A stretch of 64,000 nt of DNA from contig NC_090598.1 of NCBI RefSeq assembly GCF_000497125.1, positions 1,612,001-1,676,000 of the forward strand. The letters are read 5' to 3'. The notes below the pieces were generated by a model that saw only the letters and a program-made list of their open reading frames with translations, did no database searches and was not told where the DNA came from. This DNA comes from Spironucleus salmonicida (lineage: Eukaryota). Below, one piece after another: positions 5,415 to 60,556 of this stretch (the stretch's first letter is position 1; each line of letters opens with the position of its first letter). The position numbers were made by a program, and so were the translations under genes.

Positions 5415-6611
<1,197 letters not shown>

Positions 6612-14303: not shown

Positions 14304-15710
14304 ATGCCACCAAAACCAACTCATACCGTCACAGGAGTTGATTCTAATACTACTATCACCATTGACTATAGCACTTGTATGGGATGTGGTATGTGTGGAC
14401 GTATCTGCTCAGATAGCCAGTTAGTTGGTGCTTTCAAAGCATCTGCCCCAAAACAACCCCCACAAGTAATTTCTAAGTCTGGAGATTCGTCTGGAAATAC
14501 AGATACAACCCGCATTAAGTTAGATTCATCTAACTGTATTGGTTGTGGTTAGTGCATTACAGTTTGTGGGTTTGGATCCATATACCCTACTTCTAGAGTT
14601 AGTGAAATTTGGGAAGCTAAATAAGCTGGTAAAAAATTAATAGCAGTTTTAGCTCCTGCTACAAGAGTTGGATTGTCAGAATCTATGGGTTAAGAACCGG
14701 GAACAACTTGTGAGGCTTAATTAATTAAAAGTCTTCGTGACATTGGGTTTGATTATATATTTGACAATCTCTGGGGTGCTGATGCTACGACTATTGAAGA
14801 CGCAAAAGAGGCTATTTATGCAAAAGAAAAAGGTATTGGACCAGTATTTACTTCTTGTTGCCCAGCTTGGATTAATGTTGTAGAAAACAAATATCCTTCT
14901 CTTATTCCTAAAATATCAACATCACGATCTCCTCATGGTATTATTTGCTCAACTATTAAAAAACATTGGGTAAAAGAAATAGGCTTAAATGCAGAGGATA
15001 TTTGCGTTGTTGGGTTCATGCCATGCACTGCTAAAAAGGATGAAGCTTTAAGATAGGAACTTATGACTAATGGTGTTGCTGATTGTGATATATCAGTTAC
15101 AACACGTGAAATGGCGGATATTTTCAAGAATAGAAAATTTATATTTAGCATTGAACATGAATAAGAGCTAAAAGATACTAAAGAAGGTTAATTTGATGCG
15201 CCATTTAATAATTACTCAGGCTCAGCTTATATTTTTGGCAAAACTGCTGGTGTTACTGAGGCAGTGTTGCGTTTTATTTGTTCCTTGAAGAATGTACCAT
15301 GTGATATGGCTTAAGCAAAAGTTGAAACTCTCTTCACTCATAAAGACAATGTATAGACTGTTAAAGTTTTTGAAATGAATATTCGTGGCGAAATTTACCG
15401 TGCTGCTGTTGCTCATGGTGGTGTTGCAGTGGATGAATTAGTTAAACTAGTGGAATCTGGATCTTTAAAATGCGATATTTGTGAAATAATGATGTGTCCT
15501 CTAGGATGCTAGAATGGTGGTGGGTAACCTAGATAAATGAAGAAGCCCCTACTTACAAAACGTGCCGATGCATTAGATGAACATGATAAAGCAAGTGTTT
15601 ATTCTGATTGTGAAAGTAATAAAGCTCTTCATGATTATATGGATAAATATATGCCAACAGAACATAATGTTCATGAGGTATTCCATACATATTTTACAGC
15701 TAAAAAATGA
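14304..15710 (+). CDS. [FeFe]-hydrogenase (2x[4Fe-4S] ferredoxin domain plus H-cluster domain), 468 aa
   Basis: CMGCGMCGRIC and CIGCGQCITVC; H-cluster motifs FTSCCPAW, MPCTAKKDE and EIMMCPLGCQNGGGQP; C-terminal HTYFT. Confidence 0.95.
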
Positions 15711-24713: not shown

Positions 24714-26051
24714 TCACTTAATTAGAAGACCTTTCTATCTTTTAACTAGATAATCTTTCAACGCTTTATCTACTTTTTTTTCTGTTTACTCTATCTTATC
24801 ATATTTTTTGACATAGTAATCTTTTAACTATCTGTTGATTGTAGGTTCAAATTCCCTGTCCGGCTCAATCATATAAAGAGGATCTGTTCCAGCTACTTTT
24901 TTATAATATTTCGCCTTTTCTTATTAATCAAATTTTTATTTTGCTCTCTATTAACTTTACGAATTAACTTACTTTTCAAATTCAATAAAAACATCATTTG
25001 ATGACTAAATAGCAGTAAATTTTGTACAACTATCCTTAATAATCTATTAATATTAAACAGCATCCCTATTTTTCGACTACACTCTTTACTTCTAATTTCT
25101 AATTGTAGTCTGTGGCTACTACTTAATCCTACTTTCATTAATAATCGATGATCTAGGTACAGTTTTTAATTAGTTAATAATAAGATTGCTTTTTAATGGT
25201 TAGTTATACTACTGTAGTGTTATAGATTTAATATTAAAATTCTTGGTCTATGTTTCCAATTTCTCTAACGCAGATAGAATATCGTTATCAGATTCTAAAT
25301 CTAAATCATTTAAACCTAATTAAACTTCAGCTAGATTATCAATTTAAGCCTTTTATTATTATTACTCGATAAAACTGATTCCAATTGTAACAGATTTTCT
25401 TTTTAAATCAACTGGTTTTTATTTTATTGGAGAATTTTGAGGTTTTCTTGTTTATGCTGAAGATGATCTAAATCTTTTGAAATAATGTGAATTGTCAAAT
25501 ACATCATCATGGGGTGCCTTGTAAATATTCTCAGATAATTTTTTAGCTGAATTGTCCAATTACTATTGCTTAAATAAGTCAAAATTAGTAGGGTAAGATT
25601 ACTATATATTATTTGCAAGTAGTTTTTGCTTATTTGCTTAACTTGAAGAACCCACAGAAGATGCTCGAGCAAACACTGTAGAAGACACAGGTCTCTTTTT
25701 TTTCTAAGCTATAGCATTAGGTACTAATTATATGTCATACATTTTTTATTATTGCAAATATTATAATTTCTGATCTTATAGTTGTTGTTTAAGTTTTTGT
25801 GTTTCGACGTAACTATTACCTTATTTTTAACTTATAGATTATGAACGCCCAATTATATGAGGTTTTTAATTAATGTTTTGTTTAATTTATGGTTTTTGTT
25901 AAACTAATTGATTTTATTGTTTAATTTGGACAACTGCCAAAGATTAGTTAAATCCAGGTTAAATAATATTTTTATTTTATAATTAAAATGATATTTATGG
26001 TCTTCCTTTTGTCATATAAGATGCCTAAGAAATTGATCTTTATGTTTTCAT
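24714..26051 (-). CDS. hypothetical Gln-rich protein, 445 aa
   Basis: ATG 26051 is in frame with TGA 24714-24716 (AAGTGA). Confidence 0.7.
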
Positions 26052-27280
26052 TTTTACAAAAATATTGCGGAATTATTATTATATTATATAAAATTTGTAT
26101 ATATCATTAAAATTTAATTACTGTCAAATTTTGTATACTTATATTGATTAATCTATTCTTACTCGTTGTCCTTACTATACTTGGCCTTCACAAAGCCCTC
26201 GTCTTCGGTGCTAAGCTGGGTGAAGAAGTTAGCGACATATCCGGTGCTCAGAGGACCTATCATAACAGGGTGGGTTCGGTTTGGCAATATCTGCTGCTGC
26301 ACTGCATGACATTTGAGAGCACCGAACCTGATGCCGTTCCTCTGCGTCACCACGAAGTTGCCCACCTCCTCGAGCGCGGGAAGTGTCTCTGCAAAAACAG
26401 ATACTGGGGCTCCCGAGTTGGCAATGGGAATGAAGGCCTTCACCGCGGGGAGGGGGCGCGATTTAGCGGCGATGATGATGCTGTCGAAGGCAAATTTCTT
26501 ATCGGAGAAGTCCGCATAACAGAGCATGGGTACTAGGTCTGCCTTCTGCACATTATGCAGCTTCCCGTCCACTATGCACAGCCTGCTCACGCGGCCCAGG
26601 GCGGTGCCGTTAACCCCGTAGTATGCCAGTCTTCTCTCTACCCAGAAGATAAAGTCGAGGTCCAGCTCCTTGGTGATTGTGTCGCTAGTGATCATCGGCA
26701 CCTCGCTTGTGAATATCTGCTTGCTGTTGGGGTCTGGAAACACGCCCAAGTTGTCCAAGAACTGGTCGTCCTGGCTCAAGAACCGCCACAGGTTGCAGTG
26801 GAATACCACCGGCGTGGTGGGCCATCTAGCGCCGTCCTCGTGAGCAGCCCTATGGGGTAGCAGGTTGCAGTCGATCAGGGTGTCCTTCAGCTAGCTGGCG
26901 GAGTGGTCTCCTGCGCACAGCACACTACTCTGAGAGTTGTGTGGGATGTTCGAGTTTTTGATAAAGTCGACGAATAGCTGCTTAATGTTAGCCTGGAGAT
27001 CGCGCAACTTCACCGCGTCAAACTCGCTCCCAATGAGCTTGATGAGATCAACACACTCCTACTCGAAGTCGCACTTGACGTTTTGCTTTAAGGGGTCTAT
27101 CTGAAGCTTCTCGCATACCGCACCTACCACGACGCCATCGAACTTGTGAAGTGATTTAGATTTTGCAAACTTGAAGAAAATGAAATCAATAAATTTGCAC
27201 AAATAATATTTTTAATAAAATTTGATTGCCAATCCAAAATCAATAACGTATAATTATATAATAATTATGTTATTATTCAT
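26048..27280 (-). pseudogene. 5'-truncated or chimeric TRM6 duplicate (pseudogene or new chimeric ORF)
   Basis: The TRM6 frame stays open into unrelated flanks. In-frame ATGs at 27280 and 27445; first TGA at 26048-26050. Lacks the ~150-aa TRM6 N-terminus. Confidence 0.55.
26164..27142 (-). repeat. 979-bp GC-rich duplicated segment, copy 1 (3' two-thirds of TRM6)
   Basis: Matches 42410..43388 at offset 16246. The only differences seen are 3 nt inside 26921..26943. Confidence 0.95.
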
Positions 27281-27485: not shown

Positions 27486-27989
27486 ATGAGCAAACGTGCA
27501 AGAAAATCTAATTGGTCTTAAGAAGAAAATGATCTATTCATTACTGCATTGCAGTAGTATGGTAGATAAAATTACTAACAAATCCATCAATTTTTATGTG
27601 ATAACTATGATAATTTTGATAGGGATGTGAAAGAAGTAAAGAAAAAAGTATATAATTTTTTATAGGATAACATTTTATAATAAATTTAGCAAGATATTCA
27701 TTTATAAGTAGGTTATTCATTACTATGCACTTATAAGTAAAGAAATCCTATTAGTGGTGAATCTGATATGAATCTGCGGCATTTAATTCAATTTTTAAAC
27801 ACAGATTATTCTACATTAATGACAAACTACTAAAAGCTAAGAACTAAAATGGACAATTTTGAGAAAATATTAAACACTATATTGCATATTTGCAATGATA
27901 TTAATATAGACCCTTGGGATTTTGGATAGGTTCTGGAAGACCAGACTTATATTAGAATCTTAGAATCTTTTTATTAATCAATTTAATGA
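27486..27989 (+). CDS. Myb/SANT-domain protein, 167 aa
   Basis: RKSNWSQEENDLFITALQQYGRQNYQQI...RDVKEVKKKYYN. Confidence 0.8.
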
Positions 27990-28033
27990 TATTTTGGGTT
28001 ATTATATTATTGTCTTAATATATTTTTATATTA

Positions 28034-28996
28034 ATGAATGAAAAGCAATCATATCAATCAGCTATTTTTCTGGCCACTTAATCTATAGAAAATTTCGAAG
28101 GATATTTCAAGAATATTCCTGACATTGAATAAGCGATACATTCTATGTTTAATATTTCAGAAAACTAAAACGAATCTATTTCGGATATCTTTCTGAGCTC
28201 TAAATAAAAATCGACCATGCTTCAGTCCAGTCTTGATAATTCGTTTTCTATTAAAACATAGAAGCTGCATATAGAGCTTCCTACAAGCATCCCATCTTCG
28301 CCGTTTGTATCCACTCCAAAATTACTAGATTTTGACTCACAGTTGTCAGCTACATTTTCATACTAAAAGGCAAGCCCAACTGGCATCAGACTTGGATCTC
28401 CTGCCCGAAAGCTTGCTCGTAACGCGAATCTACGTCAGGAGGTCGATAATGCGACACGCCAGATTCACGTTAGTGGGCTGCAGCGACAAATCGAGTAGCT
28501 TAAGGTTTAAATGATTTAAATTAAATCTAATATTACCAAAAAAGATTAGGCCCTCGAACTTCTCAAAGTGCAGGGTTAGACAATTAAAAAACAGGGTGTA
28601 AGATAATCAGAAAATTGTAATAAATAGCAAGAGTAGATGAACAAGCAAATGAATGTGGTTAAGAAATTAGAAGAAATGCGAAACCATATTCATCATACGA
28701 TTTGTTCACTTGGAAATTCACACCCAGAGTATACTGTTTTTGTAAAAGGAAAGTGGATATATGACTAAGCTTAGTCACTTTTTTCTTAACTTTTGGATAT
28801 ATGTGATTCTAAAATTTACGATGCATCAAAATTTGCTTGTTTAAATATGCAGCAGCAAGTTTTGGAAGTTTAAGCTGATATTGAGCCACATTTGTATAAA
28901 AATTAATAACTGAGAGATGATTTTAGCCAGAAAGAGCAATTACTACAGGAACTAAAATTACAATATCATAACTGTATAATGAATCAATATAAATGA
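28034..28996 (+). CDS. hypothetical protein (Ser/Pro-rich middle, coiled-coil C-terminus), 320 aa
   Basis: Open frame ATG to TGA in the alternative code. Confidence 0.7.
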
Positions 28997-30062: not shown

Positions 30063-32216
30063 ATGTAAGCCAAATTACTATTATAGTAAAATGAAGATGC
30101 TAACGTAATTAACAATAAAATTCTACAAAAATATGATAATAAACTGTTTAATAATATTATTGTCGTGCCGAAGGAGAAAGTGGACCCCGCCGAGGTTGAA
30201 ATAGCGATTGGTGGGGAGCAGCGCGCCGACTATGAACATGCAGAGGAGAAAGACGCATGGCACACAGAAGATAACCTCCCAAACGTCATTGTCGTGCCGA
30301 AGGAGAAAGTGGACCCCGCCGAGGTTGAAATAGCGATTGGTGGGGAGCAGCGCGCCGACTATGAACATGCAGAGGAGAAAGACGCATGGCACACAGAAGA
30401 TAACCTCCCAAACGTCATTGTCGTGCCGAAGGAGAAAGTGGACCCCGCCGAGGTTGAAATAGCGATTGGTGGGGAGCAGCGCGCCGACTATGAACATGCA
30501 GAGGAGAAAGACGCATGGCACACAGAAGATAACCTCCCAAACGTCATTGTCGTGCCGAAGGAGAAAGTGGACCCCGCCGAGGTTGAAATAGCGATTGGTG
30601 GGGAGCAGCGCGCCGACTATGAACATGCAGAGGAGAAAGACGCATGGCACACAGAAGATAACCTCCCAAACGTCATTGTCGTGCCGAAGGAGAAAGTGGA
30701 CCCCGCCGAGGTTGAAATAGCGATTGGTGGGGAGCAGCGCGCCGACTATGAACATGCAGAGGAGAAAGACGCATGGCACACAGAAGATAACCTCCCAAAC
30801 GTCATTGTCGTGCCGAAGGAGAAAGTGGACCCCGCCGAGGTTGAAATAGCGATTGGTGGGGAGCAGCGCGCCGACTATGAACATGCAGAGGAGAAAGACG
30901 CATGGCACACAGAAGATAACCTCCCAAACGTCATTGTCGTGCCGAAGGAGAAAGTGGACCCCGCCGAGGTTGAAATAGCGATTGGTGGGGAGCAGCGCGC
31001 CGACTATGAACATGCAGAGGAGAAAGACGCATGGCACACAGAAGATAACCTCCCAAACGTCATTGTCGTGCCGAAGGAGAAAGTGGACCCCGCCGAGGTT
31101 GAAATAGCGATTGGTGGGGAGCAGCGCGCCGACTATGAACATGCAGAGGAGAAAGACGCATGGCACACAGAAGATAACCTCCCAAACGTCATTGTCGTGC
31201 CGAAGGAGAAAGTGGACCCCGCCGAGGTTGAAATAGCGATTGGTGGGGAGCAGCGCGCCGACTATGAACATGCAGAGGAGAAAGACGCATGGCACACAGA
31301 AGATAACCTCCCAAACGTCATTGTCGTGCCGTCAACTTAAGTTGACGGCGACGACATAGATTGTATTAATAGGTATTAAAATATTGAGGTTTATGATTCT
31401 ATAAGTATTGACAGTAACCATTGTTAAAATATAGATTTCAATTATTAAAATATATTTGAATAAGAAAATGCTGATTTTTAAGTAAAGACCATAATCAACT
31501 AAAGTCCGTCAGTCAATTTATCTTAAAATTAGAACTCTCTATAATTTGAAGTTGAATATATTTAGTAATTCTAGACGGCTATTAATGATGAAGATTTAGT
31601 CGATACAAATTTAGAAGATTTAGATGATGCTGTATTACGAACATAGTCACAGTCTTCTAAATTATAAGTATCTTACATATCTACTTAATAAAGAAAGTAA
31701 ACATTATCGTAATCATTGAGACCTTCTTATTAAGTTAAGTATGCTAAAATATCACCAGCAAGATATTAGTTACATGAAATAGTTACAAGAAAACATGCTA
31801 AAAAAACAATAGATGATCAAGATTTATTATTAAAAGAGCTTTAAAAAGAATTATAGACACCAAAGAATTAGACACGCAGAGTATAATTTTTAGATATTAG
31901 TGATAAGAATCATGCATTAGCGGAAGAATTAGTACCAAAGGTAAATTTTTAAGATAGATATGCTTATATCATTGAAGGAGATAAAATATTTTAAAAAAAG
32001 AAGAGACATGCTGAAATTGAGAGATAAATAAGGAAGAAAGATTATTAAAGTAGTCATTAAAGTAATTATTGTAGATAAAATATTAGTTCAAATAATGTTT
32101 CTACTGATGCAAATGGATATTAATATTTACAAGTTAGTAAGCTTGTTAGAGAGATAATTAATGCTCCATTAATAGTCCCAAAAGGAAAAACTTAAGATGA
32201 ATGTGTAGGAGAGTGA
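30063..32216 (+). CDS. hypothetical protein with nine 43-aa acidic repeats, 717 aa
   Basis: ATG 30063 is in frame with track ORF 30165..31340, reads through TAA(Gln) and stops at GAGTGA 32214-32216. Confidence 0.8.
30159..31331 (+). repeat. coding tandem repeat, 129-bp unit x ~9.1, GC-rich
   Basis: ATTGTCGTGCCG recurs every 129 bp (30159, 30288 ... 31320). Units appear identical and encode IVVPKEKVDPAEVEIAIGGEQRADYEHAEEKDAWHTEDNLPNV. Confidence 0.97.
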
Positions 32217-40290: not shown

Positions 40291-42258
40291 TCATTTCATA
40301 GAAGCAAAGTCATATGCTTTAACATAGTCTTTAATCATAATCTTCCAATCTATCTCGTGAGAATTTCTAGTCATGGTATTTCTAAGCTAAATACGTTCAT
40401 ACATATTCAATTTAAGATAATCGATAATTATTTCATAAAGCTGTTGAGTCTACTAAACTTTAGTCAAGTTTTATCTGTCTAAAACCTAAACACCATAATG
40501 GCAATTCAGCCATTTTTATGATTTCATTTTTTAAAAATCCTCCTGAGAGACATTCATCAACATTGCCTATTAAAGAGAAGGAACAGATTGAGAATGTAAT
40601 TAACTCTCAATCTGTTTTTAAGATTCCGATTTAGTAACATCTAAGTTTTAAATAAATGAACCGAAACCTTAAGTAGAAGATACAATTGATGCAGTACCAT
40701 TACAAATGCATTCTGGAACCTTATAAGAGAATGGCTTATATAGCCCTGCAAATACCCCAATATGAGCACCACGAACAAATTCTTTAAAGTCAAGACCAAT
40801 AACAGAGGTAGTAGTTAATTTTTCAGGTATCCATATAATTTTCGCATAATCATCTATTGCGTTATTGATTCCAGCTTATTGCAATTTTTTAAGTAAGGGA
40901 TGAGTATCTTCTATCTCATGTGTAACTATCGGTGCATTAGCTCTTAATGTAGCCAAAGACTATTAAATATTTTAAATGAGTAGTAACTCTTTATTGTCAC
41001 ATAGATCTTTCATTTTAATATCATTAAAACTTGTTTTGTTAGTTTTGCATATACTTCTTATTAGATTCGCATGAATTTATTTTTTAACTTTTGCTAATTA
41101 TTCTTCTGCCTCTTTCATTAGACTAGTCTTCCTTAGCATTTCGATATTGAGACCTTTATGCTTAGCTTCGTGCAGTATAAGACAAATAACAGATCTCCCT
41201 TTCAACTATGGATACTATTCTATAAATTATGGATCTTTTACCTACTTATTTAAAAGAGCTATAGCATCTATAAATAATTCAAAACCATCGTTCTCATAAT
41301 CTTTGCCTGCTGTAAATACTATGGAGGTTCTATCAAGATTTACTTACCCATAAAATGCTGTCTTAACGAATTTCATAATTTATTATTTAGTAAACTTATG
41401 TGTAAAGTTCAATTAAGTATCATCTAGCTCGCCTTTTTATGCCAGTGAATCTATGCCAGTATATAGATAAATTTCTGGGCGTTTTCCATAAATTTTATCA
41501 CATTCTGCTGTGAGAGATTATGTAATTGCAGTAAATAAGTTGGTTGTAGTAATTAATTATTTTTCAATAATTAATTCTTTATAAACACCAGCCTTTTTAG
41601 CTTCTAAACTAGGATCTAAACTATTATTTTTCTGATATTGCTTACCCAAACAAGATTCATGTATAGTATACATAAATTTAACTCTATTTTTATCAAAAGC
41701 AGAAATAGAATGATTAACTATAGAAAATGCAGAGGTTTAGCTTTAGAATAAAAGCTAGAATAATCCTGATTGCCAATCATGATAATGAATTATAACTTTT
41801 TCAGCATTTTTGCAATGATAAAGTGCAAAAAAGCTGCAAAAAGCCCATGATAAAGCAGATGAAACCACTTCGGTATCATCAAACTTAATTTAATTATTCA
41901 TAATAATGTTCAGTTATTTTTGAACAATATCCAATAAAGAAGTGTCTGCTTATGGCAGCATGATAACTGGTGCCATATTTGCTGATATCCAGTGACCATA
42001 GAGAACGCTCTGATGAGGAAGCTTAAAAATATTTTCAAAATTAAGTAATAATTAGTCCCAATAGTGCTCTCTTTTATTAATAAACTGGTTAGAGCACTTC
42101 ACATCTAATTGGTCTTTATAAAAACCAATCATTAAATAGTGGTCCCCTAGTAAGCTGACGATCTCTTGTGCTTTAGTTTTTAGTGTACGGTGAATGTTAT
42201 AGTTTATGTCAAAAATAACATCATGTGATACCTCCAAAATAAATTTAGATAGGTCCAT
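40291..42258 (-). CDS. GT3-family glycogen synthase homologue with degenerate active-site motifs, 655 aa
   Basis: ILEVSHDV...TLKTKA, HYHDWQSG, FTAGKDYENDG, LDFKEFVRGAHIGVF, ECICNG..SIVSSTQGFG, IDWK. Confidence 0.85.
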
Positions 42259-42383
42259 TTGTTGGAATGGTGATTTAGTTTCGCTTAATATAATATTATT
42301 ATATATTATTATTCTAGTATAAAGGATTAGTTACTAAGACTTAAAACTAAGGTGAAATTAAAAGAAATATAAAAATATCGCAA

Positions 42384-43844
42384 TCATCTTACTTTTTTCT
42401 ACCTTCCTCCGTTGTCCTTACTATACTTGGCCTTCACAAAGCCCTCGTCTTCGGTGCTAAGCTGGGTGAAGAAGTTAGCGACATATCCGGTGCTCAGAGG
42501 ACCTATCATAACAGGGTGGGTTCGGTTTGGCAATATCTGCTGCTGCACTGCATGACATTTGAGAGCACCGAACCTGATGCCGTTCCTCTGCGTCACCACG
42601 AAGTTGCCCACCTCCTCGAGCGCGGGAAGTGTCTCTGCAAAAACAGATACTGGGGCTCCCGAGTTGGCAATGGGAATGAAGGCCTTCACCGCGGGGAGGG
42701 GGCGCGATTTAGCGGCGATGATGATGCTGTCGAAGGCAAATTTCTTATCGGAGAAGTCCGCATAACAGAGCATGGGTACTAGGTCTGCCTTCTGCACATT
42801 ATGCAGCTTCCCGTCCACTATGCACAGCCTGCTCACGCGGCCCAGGGCGGTGCCGTTAACCCCGTAGTATGCCAGTCTTCTCTCTACCCAGAAGATAAAG
42901 TCGAGGTCCAGCTCCTTGGTGATTGTGTCGCTAGTGATCATCGGCACCTCGCTTGTGAATATCTGCTTGCTGTTGGGGTCTGGAAACACGCCCAAGTTGT
43001 CCAAGAACTGGTCGTCCTGGCTCAAGAACCGCCACAGGTTGCAGTGGAATACCACCGGCGTGGTGGGCCATCTAGCGCCGTCCTCGTGAGCAGCCCTATG
43101 GGGTAGCAGGTTGCAGTCGATCAGGGTGTCCTTCAGCTAGCTGGCGGAGTGGTCTCCTGCGCACAGCACACAACTCTCAGAGTAGTGTGGGATGTTCGAG
43201 TTTTTGATAAAGTCGACGAATAGCTGCTTAATGTTAGCCTGGAGATCGCGCAACTTCACCGCGTCAAACTCGCTCCCAATGAGCTTGATGAGATCAACAC
43301 ACTCCTACTCGAAGTCGCACTTGACGTTTTGCTTTAAGGGGTCTATCTGAAGCTTCTCGCATACCGCACCTACCACGACGCCATCGAAATCATCAAATAC
43401 TAATATTTTTGAACGATTTTATACTCTAGATACTGCAGTTTACTCTAATAGCACTGCTAAAGATTCCGAATTGAGTAAAAATTAATTCTTTTATGTTGAA
43501 TTAGTAAATTTATAGTCAGTTAATAAACGTGGAGAAGAAATTTAAATTCTGACATGATTGGCTTGTTTTGACCTAGATTTTTATTATTTTTTCAATGTAT
43601 TAAGATCGTCCGTAGTATTCACTGAAGAATGTTGAAAATAGTCGGATGTTAAATAGTCATCAATTAGCTCAAATGGTGTGATTTAACAACATTAACCTGA
43701 AGGAAGATTAAGGATAGATTTCGTATCAATTTAAACAGAATTTAAAGATATAGGCTTATTTGGATCTACTTTCGTTAAATATGATGAATCATTTTTAAAA
43801 TCCAATAAAACAGTATCAAATGGAGATATGTGGAAATTCGACAT
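42384..43844 (-). CDS. TRM6: tRNA m1A58 methyltransferase non-catalytic subunit (Trm6/Gcd10), 486 aa
   Basis: SESLAVLLEQTAV...SKILVFDDFDGVVVGAVCEKL; FDSIIIAAKSRP...GAPVSVF; QQQILPNRTHPVMIGPLSTGYV, compare the Gcd10 signature YQVLPxRTHPxM...GGY. Confidence 0.85.
42410..43388 (-). repeat. 979-bp GC-rich duplicated segment, copy 2 (inside the intact TRM6)
   Basis: Matches 26164..27142. Confidence 0.95.
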
Positions 43845-48029: not shown

Positions 48030-49607
48030 ATGTCAGTTAACGAAGAAATGGATATTAATAACGATTATCAGACTATCAGCTTAGATCAATAGGAATAAGA
48101 ACCTCAGGTTTCTTTAAGTGCCTAGCCTAAAGGCCCACCTTAACCGCTCCCATAAACGTCACTACTGTGTAAACATTATGAAACAAATGATGAGGAGTTT
48201 TTTGATGCAGCAATCTAAACTCTACAGACAAGAATTTTTAACAGGACCAAAAAGATTATTGCAGCACTGCAAGGTGGCACCTATTTTGAACGAGAAAAAG
48301 TATCATATTAAACACAAACTGCAGCATTTCATAACGAGTATCAGCAGTCCTCACGGGAGGCCAGTATCCAGCCGTTCAATCCTATCCTTTACGGCTCAGA
48401 TAAAATCAAAGGTGAGTACACGCTTTATGCGAACCCTGCCAGATATGAGACAGCGGACCAATTTTTTGTAAGAAGAGAGTCCGCTGTGAAGCTTATTTAG
48501 TCGTGCTGGCGAAAATACAAAGCTTAAAAATACTGTTAGATTTTAATCCAAGAGAGGGACGAGAAAATTGCTGTTTAGCAGTAAGAGGAGCTCACAATTG
48601 CAGCTCAAAAGGAGAAAGAAAGACAGTATCAGCTCAAACGCCGTGTGCAACCGAGGACAAAAGCTGACTTCGATCTTCTATATTAGGAAGTTGCGACGTG
48701 GGTTAGACAGCAGAAGTTCTCTATAGACCAAGCAAATTTGATCCCAGAAGCGAGGCAGTCGGCACTAGAGTTGCTGGTCTAAAAGGAATCGAGATTGATT
48801 TAAAACATTGAAGCATTGAAAAGGCAAACAAATATAATTCTTAGACAGGATAAAATAGTAAATTTTTTCAAAAAAATTTCTGAGCCTCGTAGGTGGTAAT
48901 TGTGGGATGGAAGTTTTGCTGCTGTCCATACACCTTATACATTAAGGGCTTAGTCATTAAGGAACATATATTATGCTTTAGAACAAAAGAACATCACATT
49001 AGATTAGAGACTTGATATCTTGTTGTAGACGAAATTTATTCTAAAAGAGTTTGATTGTGAATTAACTCGTAATGCTGTTAGGCTTATTGATGAGGAAGCA
49101 GACCTCTTATCTAGAAACCGGCCAGCTAATTCTATGGAGATGTTGAGAAAGCGTATTTTAGAACACTTTTTAGATTTCTGTGAATCTCCAGAATTTAATC
49201 CTGGAGTACTTACATTAGTTAAAGATAGCTCAGATTTAATATTCAGACCTAATACTCTTCCCGTTGTGGACAAAAAGAAGCTAAACCCAATTAAAAAAGA
49301 GCAGATGAATAGGCTTAAATAAACTTAAATAAGAAAAGCTGTGTATTCATAATTGGATCAAACTAAAGAAAAAATTAACATGATAGAAGTTTTAGGAGAA
49401 TTAGGTGGTATGTAGTAGTATAATTAAGACTTAGATGCTGACTGTTAAGTTGATGAACCAGGACTTTTCTTAAATATTCTTCCTGATGAGGTTTTTGCGA
49501 CAGATGGATATAGAATAATGCCATAAGAATGTGAAATATAAAATGAATAATCCTTTTAAAATGATGATGGAATAGGTGAAGAGATTAAAATGGACGATTT
49601 ACAGTGA
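48030..49607 (+). CDS. IQUB: IQUB/FAP253-like radial-spoke protein, 525 aa
   Basis: IQSCWRKY IQ-like motif, PRTKADFDLLYQEVATW, RLDILLQTK..LKEFDCELTR...LIDEEADLLSR, LRKRILEHFLDFCESPEFNP. Confidence 0.85.
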
Positions 49608-56002: not shown

Positions 56003-56667
56003 TATTTAAAGGAATTAAGAGTATATTATATATTATAGTTAACTAATTATCAAAATAAAATGACAATATTTATATATAATATAAAAAATATGAAATTATT
56101 TACTTATTATAGAGAATTAGTAAATTTAATGACTATTAAACTTATAAATATATTATTTTAAATTTGTAAAGTATTTATTTATTTTCTACTTACAGTTTGG
56201 TATATTTCCTTGGTAAAATTGTAAGGTATTACTTAAATTTGAAAGCTATAAATAATGCTAAAGTAATACTTGAAAACTTCAGTAAATTTAAATAAATTAA
56301 TTTCTCCAAGCACATTAATAATATAAAATATTGTTAAGTTTCAGGATTAGATCCAACTTCATAATAAATGAGTAGGAAGTTATTTTTAATTAAACAGTAA
56401 CTATTAATAATTATGTGTAAATTAACTATTATGTTGATTATAAATTCAAAACAGTTCTAATAAACTACACAATGTTACGATCTTAAAACTTAGATCATAT
56501 TTTAGTTATTTAGAACATAAGTTAAATGAAGCACTATATTATTAGTTTAATAATTTCTTAATATTTGCTGTAATGAGGTAGTAATCAATAAATAATCATT
56601 AATCTAAGTTAAGTTTACCATTTGTACATTATCTGTAATTATAAAAATGTAAATTCTATTTTAAACT

Positions 56668-56982
<315 letters not shown>

Positions 56983-56992
56983 TATTTGCAAA

Positions 56993-59900
56993 ATGAAAAG
57001 TAAGTCTATGATAAAATTATTAGATCCTAATTAATAAATTTCTGTAGAGAAGCTTAATAAATTCATAGAAAAATTGAAATAAAAATGCTATCTTTTATTG
57101 AATATTCTTCCATAATAAACAGAAGCAAAAAAATTATTTATTCACATTGATTAAACTTAATGTGACATTAAAATTAAAACAATATGGTTTATGGATGTAT
57201 TATGTCTATTATTTAGGGTTATATCTAAAGAAAAATCTATTACTGATATATACTCGTTATATAATATTCCGAACGATATATAAGATTTTTTCAAAATATA
57301 TCATGGTTTGCGAATTAAAGATTAATAGATGTATGAACTTACTAGATAAGCGATTGGTATCCCATAAAAGAAAATAAGAGACTTTGAATCTATTTCTTAA
57401 GCTGAATTTATGTTGTTAATCCTAGAATAATTTGCAGATTAATATTATTCTAAGAAACGAAAAAAGACATCTATAAAATTATTAGATGAACAAAATTTAC
57501 AATTAAATGACTAGATATAAAGCATTTACGAAATGTCTAAATATACAACAAATATTACCTCCTTCTAGTCATCTTAAGAAAACTTTCTTAATAAGAATAC
57601 TCACAAATGTAATAAAGATATGCATGTATTGTGTTAAGTAAAGGCATTAAACAAATATTAAACTTAATTTTAGTTTAAAAATCAACAATTTTAGTTGTTT
57701 GAAGATAAATTTAATTTTTAACTAGACTCATTAGAGGAAATATTTAACAAATAAAATTAACTTATGTAATATTAATTATAGAATGAATCTGAATTATAAC
57801 TTATTTTTCAGGATAATATTAGTTTGCTCTAAAAAGATTTAATAATAGATCACGATAATTTATTATTGCATCAAAATATTTTGTTATTATAATAATAAAA
57901 TGCTAATTTGTATTTAAAAATTAAAAGTTTAGAGCAAACAATTTCAACACTTAAACATGAATCTACTCATAATAATTAAAAAAGTATTATTAAATAAGAT
58001 ATATAAAACAACTAGCAATCTATTCAAAAAGAAACTATAATTAGTAATAAAAACATCGATATTAATATTTTTGGTATTAGAGCTTAATCATCTATTTAAT
58101 AAATAATAACAGACCATTTATCTTCTTTAAGTGATATGACTGAAGATAGTATTAACGATTTACCAATATAAAAAGCTGATATATAATTTTACTTATCTAA
58201 AACTAAATAAAATATTAAGGAATCATAGTCTTAAGTACTGTTATACTCATAAGAGCTCTCTGATATTAAAATATAAAATTAAGAGTAGCCATTGAATACA
58301 ATTTGTACTTTACATGAATAATCATTTGGAAATCTTATATAAAATATTTCAACAACGGATTCTTATATTTATAATGAAGAAATGGATTCCATGGCAACTC
58401 AGCAAAAGTAAGCAGTATAACATAGGCATTATTAAAATATCCTCAATTCTCCTTTTAAAGAAGTAAAAGATATTAATAACAGAATAATTTAATTCAGATC
58501 CACCCACGAGAGGGGAGATGAATCATGCAGATCCACCCACGAGAGGTAAGATGAACCTGGCAGATCCACCCACGAGTGGTAAGATGAACCTGGCAGATCC
58601 ACCCACGAGTGGTAAGATGAACCTGGCAGATCCACCCACGAGAGGTAAGATGAACCTGGCAGATCCACCCACGAGTGGTAAGATGAACCTGGCAGATCCA
58701 CCCACGAGTGGTAAGATGAACCTGGCAGATCCACCCACGAGAGGTAAGATGAACCTGGCAGATCCACCCACGAGTGGTAAGATGAACCTGGCAGATCCAC
58801 CCACGAGTGGTAAGATGAACCTGGCAGATCCACCCACGAGTGGTAAGATGAACCTGGCAGATCCACCCACGAGTGGTAAGATGAATCATGCAGATCCACC
58901 CACGAAAGGTAAGATGAACCTGGCAGATCCACCCACGAGTGGTAAGATGAACCTGGCAGATCCACCCACGAGTGGTAAGATGAACCTGGCAGATCCACCC
59001 ACGAGTGGTAAGATGAATCATGCAGATCCACCCACGAAAGGTAAGATGAACCTGGCAGATCCACCCACGAGTGGTAAGATGAACCTGGCAGATCCACCCA
59101 CGAAAGGTAAGATGAATCATGCAGATCCACCCACGAGTGGTAAGATGAATCATGCAGATCCACCCACGAAAGGTAAGATGAACCTGGCAGATCCACCCAC
59201 GAGTGGTAAGATGAACCTGGCAGATCCACCCACGAGAGGGGAGATGAATCATGCAGATCCACCCACGAGAGGTAAGATGAACCTGGCAGATCCACCCACG
59301 AGAGGGGAGATGAATCATGCAGATCCACCCACGAGTGGTAAGATGAACCTGGCAGATCCACCCACGAGTGGTAAGATGAACCTGGCAGATCCACCCACGA
59401 GAGGGGAGATGAATCATGCAGATCCACCCACGAGAGGTAAGATGAATCATGCAGACCCACCCACGAGTGGTAAGATGAACCTGGCAGATCCACCCACGAG
59501 AGGGGAGATGAATCATGCAGATCCACCCACGAGAGGTAAGATGAATCATGCAGATCCACCCACGAGTGGTAAGATGAACCTGGCAGATCCACCCACGAGA
59601 GGGGAGATGAATCATGCAGATCCACCCACGAGTGGTAAGATGAACCTGGCAGATCCACCCACGAGAGGTAAGATGAATCATGCAGATCCACCCACGAAAG
59701 GTAAGATGAATCATGCAGATCCACCCACGAGTGGTAAGATGAATCATGCAGATCCACCCACGAAAGGTAAGACGAATCATAAGCATAGACAAATAAGTTA
59801 CTTTTATCATAAAGATTTAAATTTTAAAATTATATTACAAATTTTAAGTAAGAATCTAATAGATAATACTAAGATTTGTACAATAATTTTAAGAAGTTCA

Positions 59901-60556
59901 AGGATTTTGCTTAGTCAAAGCTAGTCAAGGCAAAATAAATGTACATTTCCGCATTTGAGACTAGCTAAAAATCATAGCATATTTGTTCCAGTTTGCTACT
60001 TGAAAATAGCCAGCAAAATAACTAAGTACTTGGATATATCATGAAAATTTAAGATCTTAATTTTCAGATATAATAAATTTCCGCAGATTAATAGCTTTTA
60101 GAATAAGCATTTAGACATGCATTATCAGCATATAAAGTGTAAAATATATAAAATTAGGAATAAAAATACTACATTTCCGTATCAGTTTAAGCTGGTGATC
60201 ATTTAGCTTTTCATGAGGACTCATATGATGTTCTAGGTGGTATTATTACCAAATAATAAAAGTTAATTCAATTTGATTAAACAACTAATACTAATTTTGA
60301 AAATTTCTAGGGCTAAAAACTAGATAATAATATTATTTATAGTTTTAACCAATTACTAGAGAAATATGAAGAATTAAATAAGGTTAATAAACTATAATAA
60401 TAACTAATTAGTATTTAATAATAATTAACTTAAGAGAAATGTAAATCACTAAGGTTTTAACAATAATCTAATGTATATAAATCAGAATTATATAATAGTT
60501 AGATAAAATTATCTGATATGGATTAATCTGGTTTAAAGTTAAGTTATGTAAAGTGA
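56993..60556 (+). CDS. large Gln-rich hypothetical protein with 39 x 11-aa internal repeats, ~1187 aa
   Basis: ATG 56993 to AAGTGAA 60554-60556. This frame reads the array as RSTHE(W/R)(Q/G)DE(PG/SC) and continues on both sides. Confidence 0.75.
58496..59779 (+). repeat. coding minisatellite, 33-bp unit x ~39, GC-rich
   Basis: AGATCCACCCACGA(G/A)(T/A)GG(TA/GG)AGATGAA(CCTGGC/TCATGC). First unit at 58496, last at 59750. Confidence 0.97.

Follow-up and report, generated by a model that had tools for sequence, protein, structure and literature searches.

The TRM6 gene of Spironucleus salmonicida, a fish parasite with an AT-rich genome, turns from AT-rich to GC-rich at the point where its single-copy 5' part meets a part that is also present, almost unchanged, 16 kb away. 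The best reading of this pattern, and one that we consider probable, is that the two segments were duplicated long ago and have been kept alike by ectopic gene conversion biased toward GC, which is also the likely mechanism for the TRM6 pair itself. GC steps at the ends of repeats are a general pattern in this genome, and a well-supported one. The window that we analysed is a stretch of 64,000 nucleotides (NC_090598.1, positions 1,612,001 to 1,676,000), and coordinates below refer to it.

RESULTS

TRM6 and its truncated second copy

TRM6/Gcd10, the non-catalytic subunit of the tRNA m1A58 methyltransferase, is encoded on the minus strand at 42384..43844 (copy A, the parent copy) as an uninterrupted ORF of 486 aa under NCBI translation table 6. 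Its membership in the TRM6/Gcd10 family follows from a match to the Gcd10p domain (E = 1e-9) and from full-length alignment to the Giardia and Hexamita TRM6 proteins. The closest orthologues found share ~30% protein identity with it, and its basic C terminus resembles theirs. Three parts can be distinguished, all on the minus strand: a single-copy 5' part (43389..43844, codons 1-152), a duplicated part (42410..43388, codons 153-478) and a single-copy 3' end with the final codons and the TGA stop (42384..42409). Around 43550-43660 (codons about 62-98) the 5' part is much shorter than in six aligned orthologues and is without most of one conserved segment seen in those proteins. A glycogen synthase gene (40291-42279) adjoins TRM6.

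The second copy of the duplicated part, copy B, lies at 26164..27142 on the minus strand. It is a direct repeat 16,246 bp from copy A, and both gene ends are missing from it. The 979 bp shared by 42410-43388 and 26164-27142 align with 3 mismatches and no gaps, and a focused genome search found these two copies and no others in the whole genome. The pair thus supplies the near-identical non-allelic partner expected for a tract of GC-biased ectopic gene conversion. Copy B sits within a 410-aa ORF (26048-27280, P0003). The ends of this ORF bear no relation to TRM6, it has no Pfam match, and the flanks of copy B carry no residual likeness to TRM6 above that of shuffled sequence. Judged from its sequence, copy B is probably a truncated, dead fragment of TRM6. 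It was also the sole find of a word-index protein search with TRM6. A processed retrocopy was considered and rejected: copy B ends 26 bp short of the gene end and has no A-tail, erosion being possible.

All 3 mismatches between the copies are accounted for by a 13-bp micro-inversion between 5-bp inverted repeats (43172..43184, corresponding to 26926-26938 in copy B), so that the copies differ by no point substitution. The mismatches are A/T or G/C swaps, and the protein differs at three residues. Because the inversion creates no AT:GC mismatch, a GC bias would be blind to it.

The compositional step coincides with the end of homology

The earlier note had described TRM6 as a single ORF with an AT-rich 5' part and a GC-rich shared part, and measurement bears this out: the GC content is 0.272 in 43389-43844 and 0.543 in the shared part. 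As it had also stated, the gain falls mostly on third codon positions. GC3s rises from 26/151 (0.17) in the single-copy part to 230/320 (0.72) in the duplicated part (Fisher p = 7e-30), GC1 rises from 0.32 to 0.55 and GC2 only from 0.32 to 0.36. At four-fold sites the GC content is 0.19 in the single-copy part and 0.66 in the duplicated part of TRM6, against a background of 0.14 in 16 genes of the window, so that neutral sites of the shared interval are richer in GC than both the flanks and the unshared part of the gene. C and G are both higher in each of the four-fold boxes, and the rise is tied to no particular context. Glutamine codons change in the same way, TAA giving way to the alternatives: the 5' part has 10 TAA and 2 CAA, and the duplicated part has 0 TAA, 2 TAG, 1 CAA and 12 CAG. 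The effect may reach the protein: the GARP/FYMINK ratio is 2.5-fold higher in the duplicated part of TRM6, and it also rises 1.0- to 2.0-fold in six orthologues.

When GC3 is followed along TRM6, the maximum-likelihood change point falls at codon 152 (2-lnL support interval 151-155), and homology ends between codons 152 and 153. Each of the four homology ends of copies A and B has a change point, fitted at the nucleotide level, at a distance of 2 to 11 bp. The claim that composition switches at both breakpoints thus stands on the codon-152 side; the side at 42410 is uninformative alone, as the gene ends 26 bp further on. Conserved TRM6 motifs continue through the step in copy A. Within the duplicated part, GC3s is 69/107 toward the ends and 80/104 in the centre (p = 0.051), and the G:C counts by quarter of the repeat are 63:66, 71:67, 75:65 and 57:67, with no flip from a C excess on the left to a G excess on the right.

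The size of the shift is considerable. Relative to the background of 0.14, ~72 of 139 four-fold sites must have become GC, yet the copies are without a point substitution. The odds of GC are shifted about 12-fold in TRM6 and about 200-fold in the richest genes, and four-fold GC reaches 0.97-1.0 in several duplicated genes of the same genome.

Neither an assembly artefact nor a foreign piece is apparent

The earlier note had pointed to an assembly artefact or a foreign origin of the GC-rich part as ways in which its reading might fail, and we saw no sign of either. In two short-read DNA runs of one sample, both of which may be the source of the assembly itself, the repeat appears as a collapsed contig of exactly 979 bp, with depths of 15.8 and 24.7 against 10.3-11.6 for the flank contigs. 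Of the four junctions, three have a listed contig; the left one of copy B has none in either run, which is what an artefact has in its favour. Two further runs, guessed to be RNA, yielded contigs for the flanks of copy A and none for a copy B junction, and are uninformative on copy B. An artefact would, moreover, leave the GC step in copy A unexplained.

Trees of the two parts of TRM6, built from 12 sequences drawn from 35 orthologue hits or the TRM6 query, both group the gene with the Hexamita-side orthologues P0005 and P0007, with 99% support for the 5' part and 82% for the GC-rich part. This placement and the use of table 6 mark the organism as a hexamitine diplomonad. An approximately unbiased (AU) test rejects a Giardia-like grouping for the 5' part (p = 0.002) and keeps it for the GC-rich part (p = 0.136), a point for a foreign piece. 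Against a foreign piece, the GC-rich part contains two in-frame TAG-Gln codons, and we found in it neither a discordant phylogeny nor the standard code. An assembly artefact and a foreign origin are both unlikely, and by its sequence TRM6 is native on both sides of the step.

GC-rich and AT-rich repeats elsewhere in the window

Two coding tandem arrays are GC-rich, as had been reported before: GC is 0.51-0.55 inside them and 0.19-0.25 outside. The first, of a 129-bp unit in 9.1 identical copies, occupies 30159..31331 on the plus strand, with a GC3s of 0.60 against 0.16 in the rest of its ORF. The second, of a 33-bp unit in 38.8 copies, occupies 58495..59776 on the plus strand, at a GC of about 0.53 and with steps at both ends. 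All 18 window bins with a GC of at least 0.5 lie within a repeat. A counter-example to the rule that a repeat gives GC is a third array, absent from the earlier note, namely a perfect (TAA)105 microsatellite at 56669..56982 (plus strand) with no G or C. It amounts to about 105 Gln in the ORF 56573-60556 if the start of that ORF is real, and may be intergenic.

Variants of the 33-bp unit occur as linked blocks in irregular alternation along the array, which holds 33 TAA codons in one frame. The 129-bp array terminates in a near-perfect palindrome (31322-31356); together with the micro-inversion in TRM6, this suggests that template switching is active in these repeats.

Among the single genes, GC3s is 0.20 in CDC50a, 0.32 in CDC50b and 0.15-0.22 in most others of the window. 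The description of the CDC50 paralogues as AT-rich therefore fits CDC50a; CDC50b is somewhat raised. An FeFe-hydrogenase gene (14304-15710) has old AT-rich paralogues on C5 and C8. GC3 is intermediate (about 0.3-0.5) in three stretches for which no partner was found: 48333-48843, 27986-28996 and 1492-2508. The first of these lies in an IQUB-like gene (48333..48843, plus strand), where GC3 is 0.42-0.55 per 60 codons. The three are possible relics of lost duplicates.

GC-rich duplicates elsewhere in the genome

The genome was sampled in 72 spaced 10-kb stretches (712 kb), with 12 extensions and with partner loci from searches. A 200-bp bin was counted as partnered if it was covered completely by a match, within the 72-stretch sample, that had at least 98% identity and was at least 300 bp long. 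The 185 partnered bins have a mean GC of 0.49 (109 at 0.45 or above, 54 between and 22 below 0.30), and the 3323 bins without an in-sample partner have a mean of 0.34; 676 of the latter reach 0.45, their partners having been sought mostly within the sample only. Genome searches with 10-kb queries missed adjacent partners (L015/L116 and L021/L120 were found only later), and a "no partner" from such queries is weaker than one from the focused searches with TRM6 and L024.

At repeat ends, the composition changes abruptly. Among 36 hand-picked ends, which are non-independent in that both copies of pairs were counted and loci were partly picked for GC islands, 26 show a GC step of at least 0.2, and at 25 of these 26 the change point lies within 25 bp. 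Eight of the other ten ends are AT-rich inside and two are GC-rich outside. A layout like that of TRM6 recurs in a long gene at L032, in which GC3s is 0.71 in 96 duplicated codons and 0.24 in the other 1096. The duplicate (L032 4974-6661/L045, C7) is an inverted partial copy of the 5' end of this gene together with two small genes, whose GC3 is 0.98-0.99. Coding calls at these other loci come from ORF lists judged by eye, as a crude gene caller missed many genes. Among duplicates, GC3 forms a continuum from 0.27 to 0.99. Duplicates that are rich in GC are so in their non-coding DNA as well (L021, about 6070-6400), so that codon selection is not the cause.

Two tandem arrays at other loci were also seen: at least 11 identical 660-bp units with a GC of 0.58 (L024 from 9899 onward, and L048-L053, on C5), and an unrelated 660-bp coding array with a GC of 0.42 (L027/L082). 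A GC island without a partner in a focused genome search comprises the gene for V-ATPase subunit d and its upstream DNA (L024 5800-7600, C5), with a GC3 of about 0.7-0.8.

Identity persists in parts of old pairs, and recent copies are AT-rich

The L004 paralogues are a mosaic. Their first 137 codons are diverged (the proteins share 58% identity, and differences at 17 of 33 four-fold sites amount to about 1.1 substitutions per four-fold site after correction) and have GC3s values of 0.26 and 0.32. The next 220 codons are identical in DNA, with a GC3s of 0.73, and the following 117 are identical with a GC3s of 0.28; we assume that this last stretch recently joined the conversion tract. The paralogues (L004 1-1461 and 3281-4739, with L076, C1) are arranged head to head with diverged N-termini, beyond which about 4 kb of L004/L076 is near-identical and a roughly 900-bp AT-rich dip separates two GC-rich tracts. 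At L014 and L054/L055 as well, identical windows are GC-richer and diverged windows GC-poorer; L079 has no such mosaic. Four paralogue pairs pooled gave rho = -0.31 (58 windows, p = 0.018). Parts of old duplicates at L004, L014 and L054/L055 are thus kept identical by conversion. At TRM6, tests of the flanks gave no diverged shoulder (p = 0.73 and 0.11). By analogy, the TRM6 pair, whose GC3s equals that of the L004 core, may be about as old.

Large near-perfect duplicates that contain AT-rich DNA are found at L021/L120, L070/L071, L065/L067, the left part of L038/L073 and L006/L042, as expected of young copies. One of them (L021 1-5883/L120 1818-7700, C4) is an adjacent direct duplicate of 5883 bp at 99.97% identity that includes very AT-rich DNA, and is either a recent duplication or an assembly duplication. 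The statement in the earlier note that any near-identical partner brings GC therefore fails: GC stays under 0.30 in 22 of the 185 partnered bins, and young duplicates are AT-rich. Its core, an old pair homogenised by conversion and driven to GC, remains the best explanation and is backed by mosaics of the L004 type, by the AT-rich recent duplicates and, less clearly, by minority variants in repeats that are mostly GC-to-AT.

Minority variants in repeats are mostly A/T

Because TRM6 has two copies only, the allele spectrum was taken from six overlapping alignments of 3-6 copies at other loci. The L020, L035 and 33-bp arrays were excluded, their variants being linked blocks. Of 248 informative AT/GC sites in all, 156 have A/T as the rarer allele, the ratios of A/T to G/C per set being 3:0, 4:0, 71:33, 35:19, 32:31 and 11:9. 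Here 71:33 counts singletons of six copies, with intermediate classes of 53:53 and 62 excluded, and 11:9 counts singletons of five copies, with an intermediate class of 8:8 excluded. In the two GC-rich three-copy sets, the minority allele is A/T at 7 of 7 sites; the excess is missing in one set (32:31) and weak in another (11:9). New repeat variants would thus run AT-ward, and the GC richness of repeats would call for a bias in fixation. An excess of the same sign would also arise from decay in progress.

DISCUSSION

How duplication would drive a gene to GC

We infer from these patterns the conversion between the two TRM6 copies, their age and the bias in repair. The duplication of a 979-bp piece of TRM6, to a site 16 kb away, would be ancient; by analogy with the L004 pair, the age would correspond very roughly to one substitution per four-fold site between copies. 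The copies would since have served as mutual templates in homologous-recombination repair, by ectopic, mostly intrachromosomal gene conversion. Conversion would be confined to the shared homology, so that its effects would end at the homology ends. AT:GC mismatches in heteroduplex would go mostly to GC; AT-to-GC mutations would thereby reach both copies, and the far commoner GC-to-AT mutations would be removed. Purifying selection on copy A would filter the outcome, leaving a gain that is mainly synonymous and includes the change of TAA to CAG. A crossover between the two direct repeats would remove 16 kb of genes, so that selection may favour non-crossover outcomes.

Breaks are probably repaired here mainly by homologous recombination, because metamonads are without nonhomologous end joining (NHEJ) and parasitic diplomonads without a-EJ (PMC8516963). 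According to the supplements of that study, as far as available, S. salmonicida has Msh2, Mlh1 and UNG but not OGG1 or MutY, and diplomonads are without Msh3. Counting against conversion, a dead 1-kb copy must persist for long in a compact genome, and partnerless GC islands exist (the V-ATPase d island of L024 and the IQUB stretch). The 117 identical L004 codons with a GC3s of 0.28 and the AT-rich partnered bins also speak against it, unless they came under conversion recently.

The strength of the effect calls for more than an ordinary bias. In a toy two-locus model (N 100, conversion 0.05, bias 0.7), GC settled at 0.32 when chromosomes exchanged nothing, at 0.43 with Nr 1 and at 0.97 with Nr 10. 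For a clonal lineage, a bias of 0.7 as in mammals thus leads to only about 0.3 GC, and an extra ingredient is needed. We tentatively suggest, as a possibility that falls short of being probable, that the free sites of local duplicates are driven to about 100% GC by a force much stronger than the repair biases known so far, through either near-deterministic repair or cryptic sexual or parasexual exchange.

Other readings of the pattern

An unlikely alternative reverses cause and effect: a GC island, made for example at a break or recombination hotspot by allelic GC-biased conversion, came first and was recently copied whole, so that the pair is young. One event separates the TRM6 copies, TRM6 has no diverged shoulder, GC islands without a partner exist and recent duplications do transport old islands (L021/L120), all as this account would have it. 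It also requires the end of the duplication to meet the edge of the island within about 15 bp, a coincidence that recurs at 25 of 26 steps, whereas the ends of the recent duplications that we observed ignore island edges and take in AT-rich DNA. In L004, furthermore, identity is retained in part of an old pair.

Quite unlikely is a mutagenesis directed toward GC and triggered by repeats (a reverse RIP, or error-prone homology-directed synthesis), coupled to unbiased homogenisation, which would place the bias in mutation and not in fixation. It would explain the very sharp edges and the four-fold GC of 0.97-1.0, which is hard to reach by ordinary repair bias in a clonal organism. The minority variants of repeats, however, are mostly GC-to-AT (156/248; 7/7), where a GC-ward input would give the reverse; C and G are both up in all four-fold boxes, with no one context favoured; and large recent duplicates are unaffected.

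We consider it very unlikely that a GC-rich ancestor's composition was retained, single-copy DNA having drifted to AT while biased conversion held old duplicates at the ancestral GC. Giardia has 49% GC (PMC3916229), a loss in the S. barkhanus lineage was allowed as an alternative (PMC2874811), and the minority-allele pattern fits equally. Yet 14 S. salmonicida genes have GC3s above 75% and all of their S. barkhanus orthologues fall under this mark, in the part of PMC2874811 available to us; the highest values, near 1.0, are above those that the accessible part of PMC1805757 reports for Giardia; the continuum of duplicate GC3 from 0.27 to 0.99 is easier to read as differing ages; and retention still requires biased conversion. 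That the assembly is at fault, or that TRM6 took up a GC-rich piece of foreign DNA by recombination, is highly improbable given the contigs, trees and codons described above.

Relation to known systems

GC-biased gene conversion is already known from mammals and plastids, and the correlation between duplicates and GC in S. salmonicida is already published. What we describe is a known process, unusually strong (four-fold GC from 0.14 to 0.66, and up to 0.97-1.0) and with base-pair-sharp edges. In the mammalian pairs BMP8A/B, DDX19A/B and TUBG1/2, as in TRM6, the part of the gene homogenised by a paralogue has a higher GC3 than the unconverted part, which was attributed to biased gene conversion (Carson and Scherer 2009, PMC2720389). 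As presented in the accessible text of that study, both partners of these pairs are genes, whereas the partner of TRM6 is a truncated, apparently dead fragment, and GC3s in TRM6, unlike in those pairs, leaps from 0.17 to 0.72 within a few codons. In human non-allelic conversion too, converted parts are GC-richer than matched unconverted parts (48.9% vs 39.6% GC, with a bias of 67%; Harpak et al., 10.1101/135152), compared with 54% vs 27% and an odds shift of about 12-fold in TRM6. The arms of primate X palindromes are alike in undergoing intrachromosomal conversion, with more than 99% identity and raised GC (46% vs 41%), and former arm sequence has an intermediate GC, as do the partnerless islands here (Jackson et al. 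2021, PMC8981503); the TRM6 repeat is direct and 1 kb long, not palindromic, and its effect is several times larger. The reported shifts in human non-allelic conversion (10.1101/135152) and primate palindromes (PMC8981503) are of 5-10 GC points. Plastid inverted repeats are likewise reported to undergo intrachromosomal GC-biased conversion (PMC5010901).

In S. salmonicida, sharp GC shifts and genes of high GC3s were left unexplained in 2007 and 2010 (PMC1805757, PMC2874811), and duplicated regions were reported in 2022 to have 44.7% GC against 30.7%, gene conversion being invoked, in the text available, only for the expansion of surface-protein families (PMC9509377). The available parts of these three papers give no GC edge at a homology end, no intragenic step and no biased conversion as a cause. 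The term "gene conversion" is absent from the main text of PMC3916229, and diplomonads are absent from the accessible part of PMC5635611. In searches that covered mainly open-access journals and the main texts of the Spironucleus papers, we found no published link of Spironucleus GC islands to biased gene conversion.

Implications

Our reading offers a concrete cause for the GC islands of S. salmonicida, unexplained since 2007 and 2010, and TRM6 serves it as a rare internal control: one gene, two regimes and one sharp border. High GC3 and the loss of TAA-Gln codons would in this genome be a mark of duplication and not of lateral transfer or expression. Copy B is listed as a 410-aa protein in public collections, yet it is fragment-like.

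The size of the effect bears on recombination between homologues in diplomonads. If repair is near-deterministic, at 12:1 for TRM6 and about 200:1 for the richest genes, it would represent a novel mode of repair, in a lineage without NHEJ, Msh3, OGG1 and MutY. If exchange is the missing ingredient, the GC islands would be a record of cryptic sexual or parasexual exchange. In either case, the conversion history of every duplicate could be read from it as from a base-pair-resolved clock, and a dead gene fragment would be able to rewrite the codons of a housekeeping gene.
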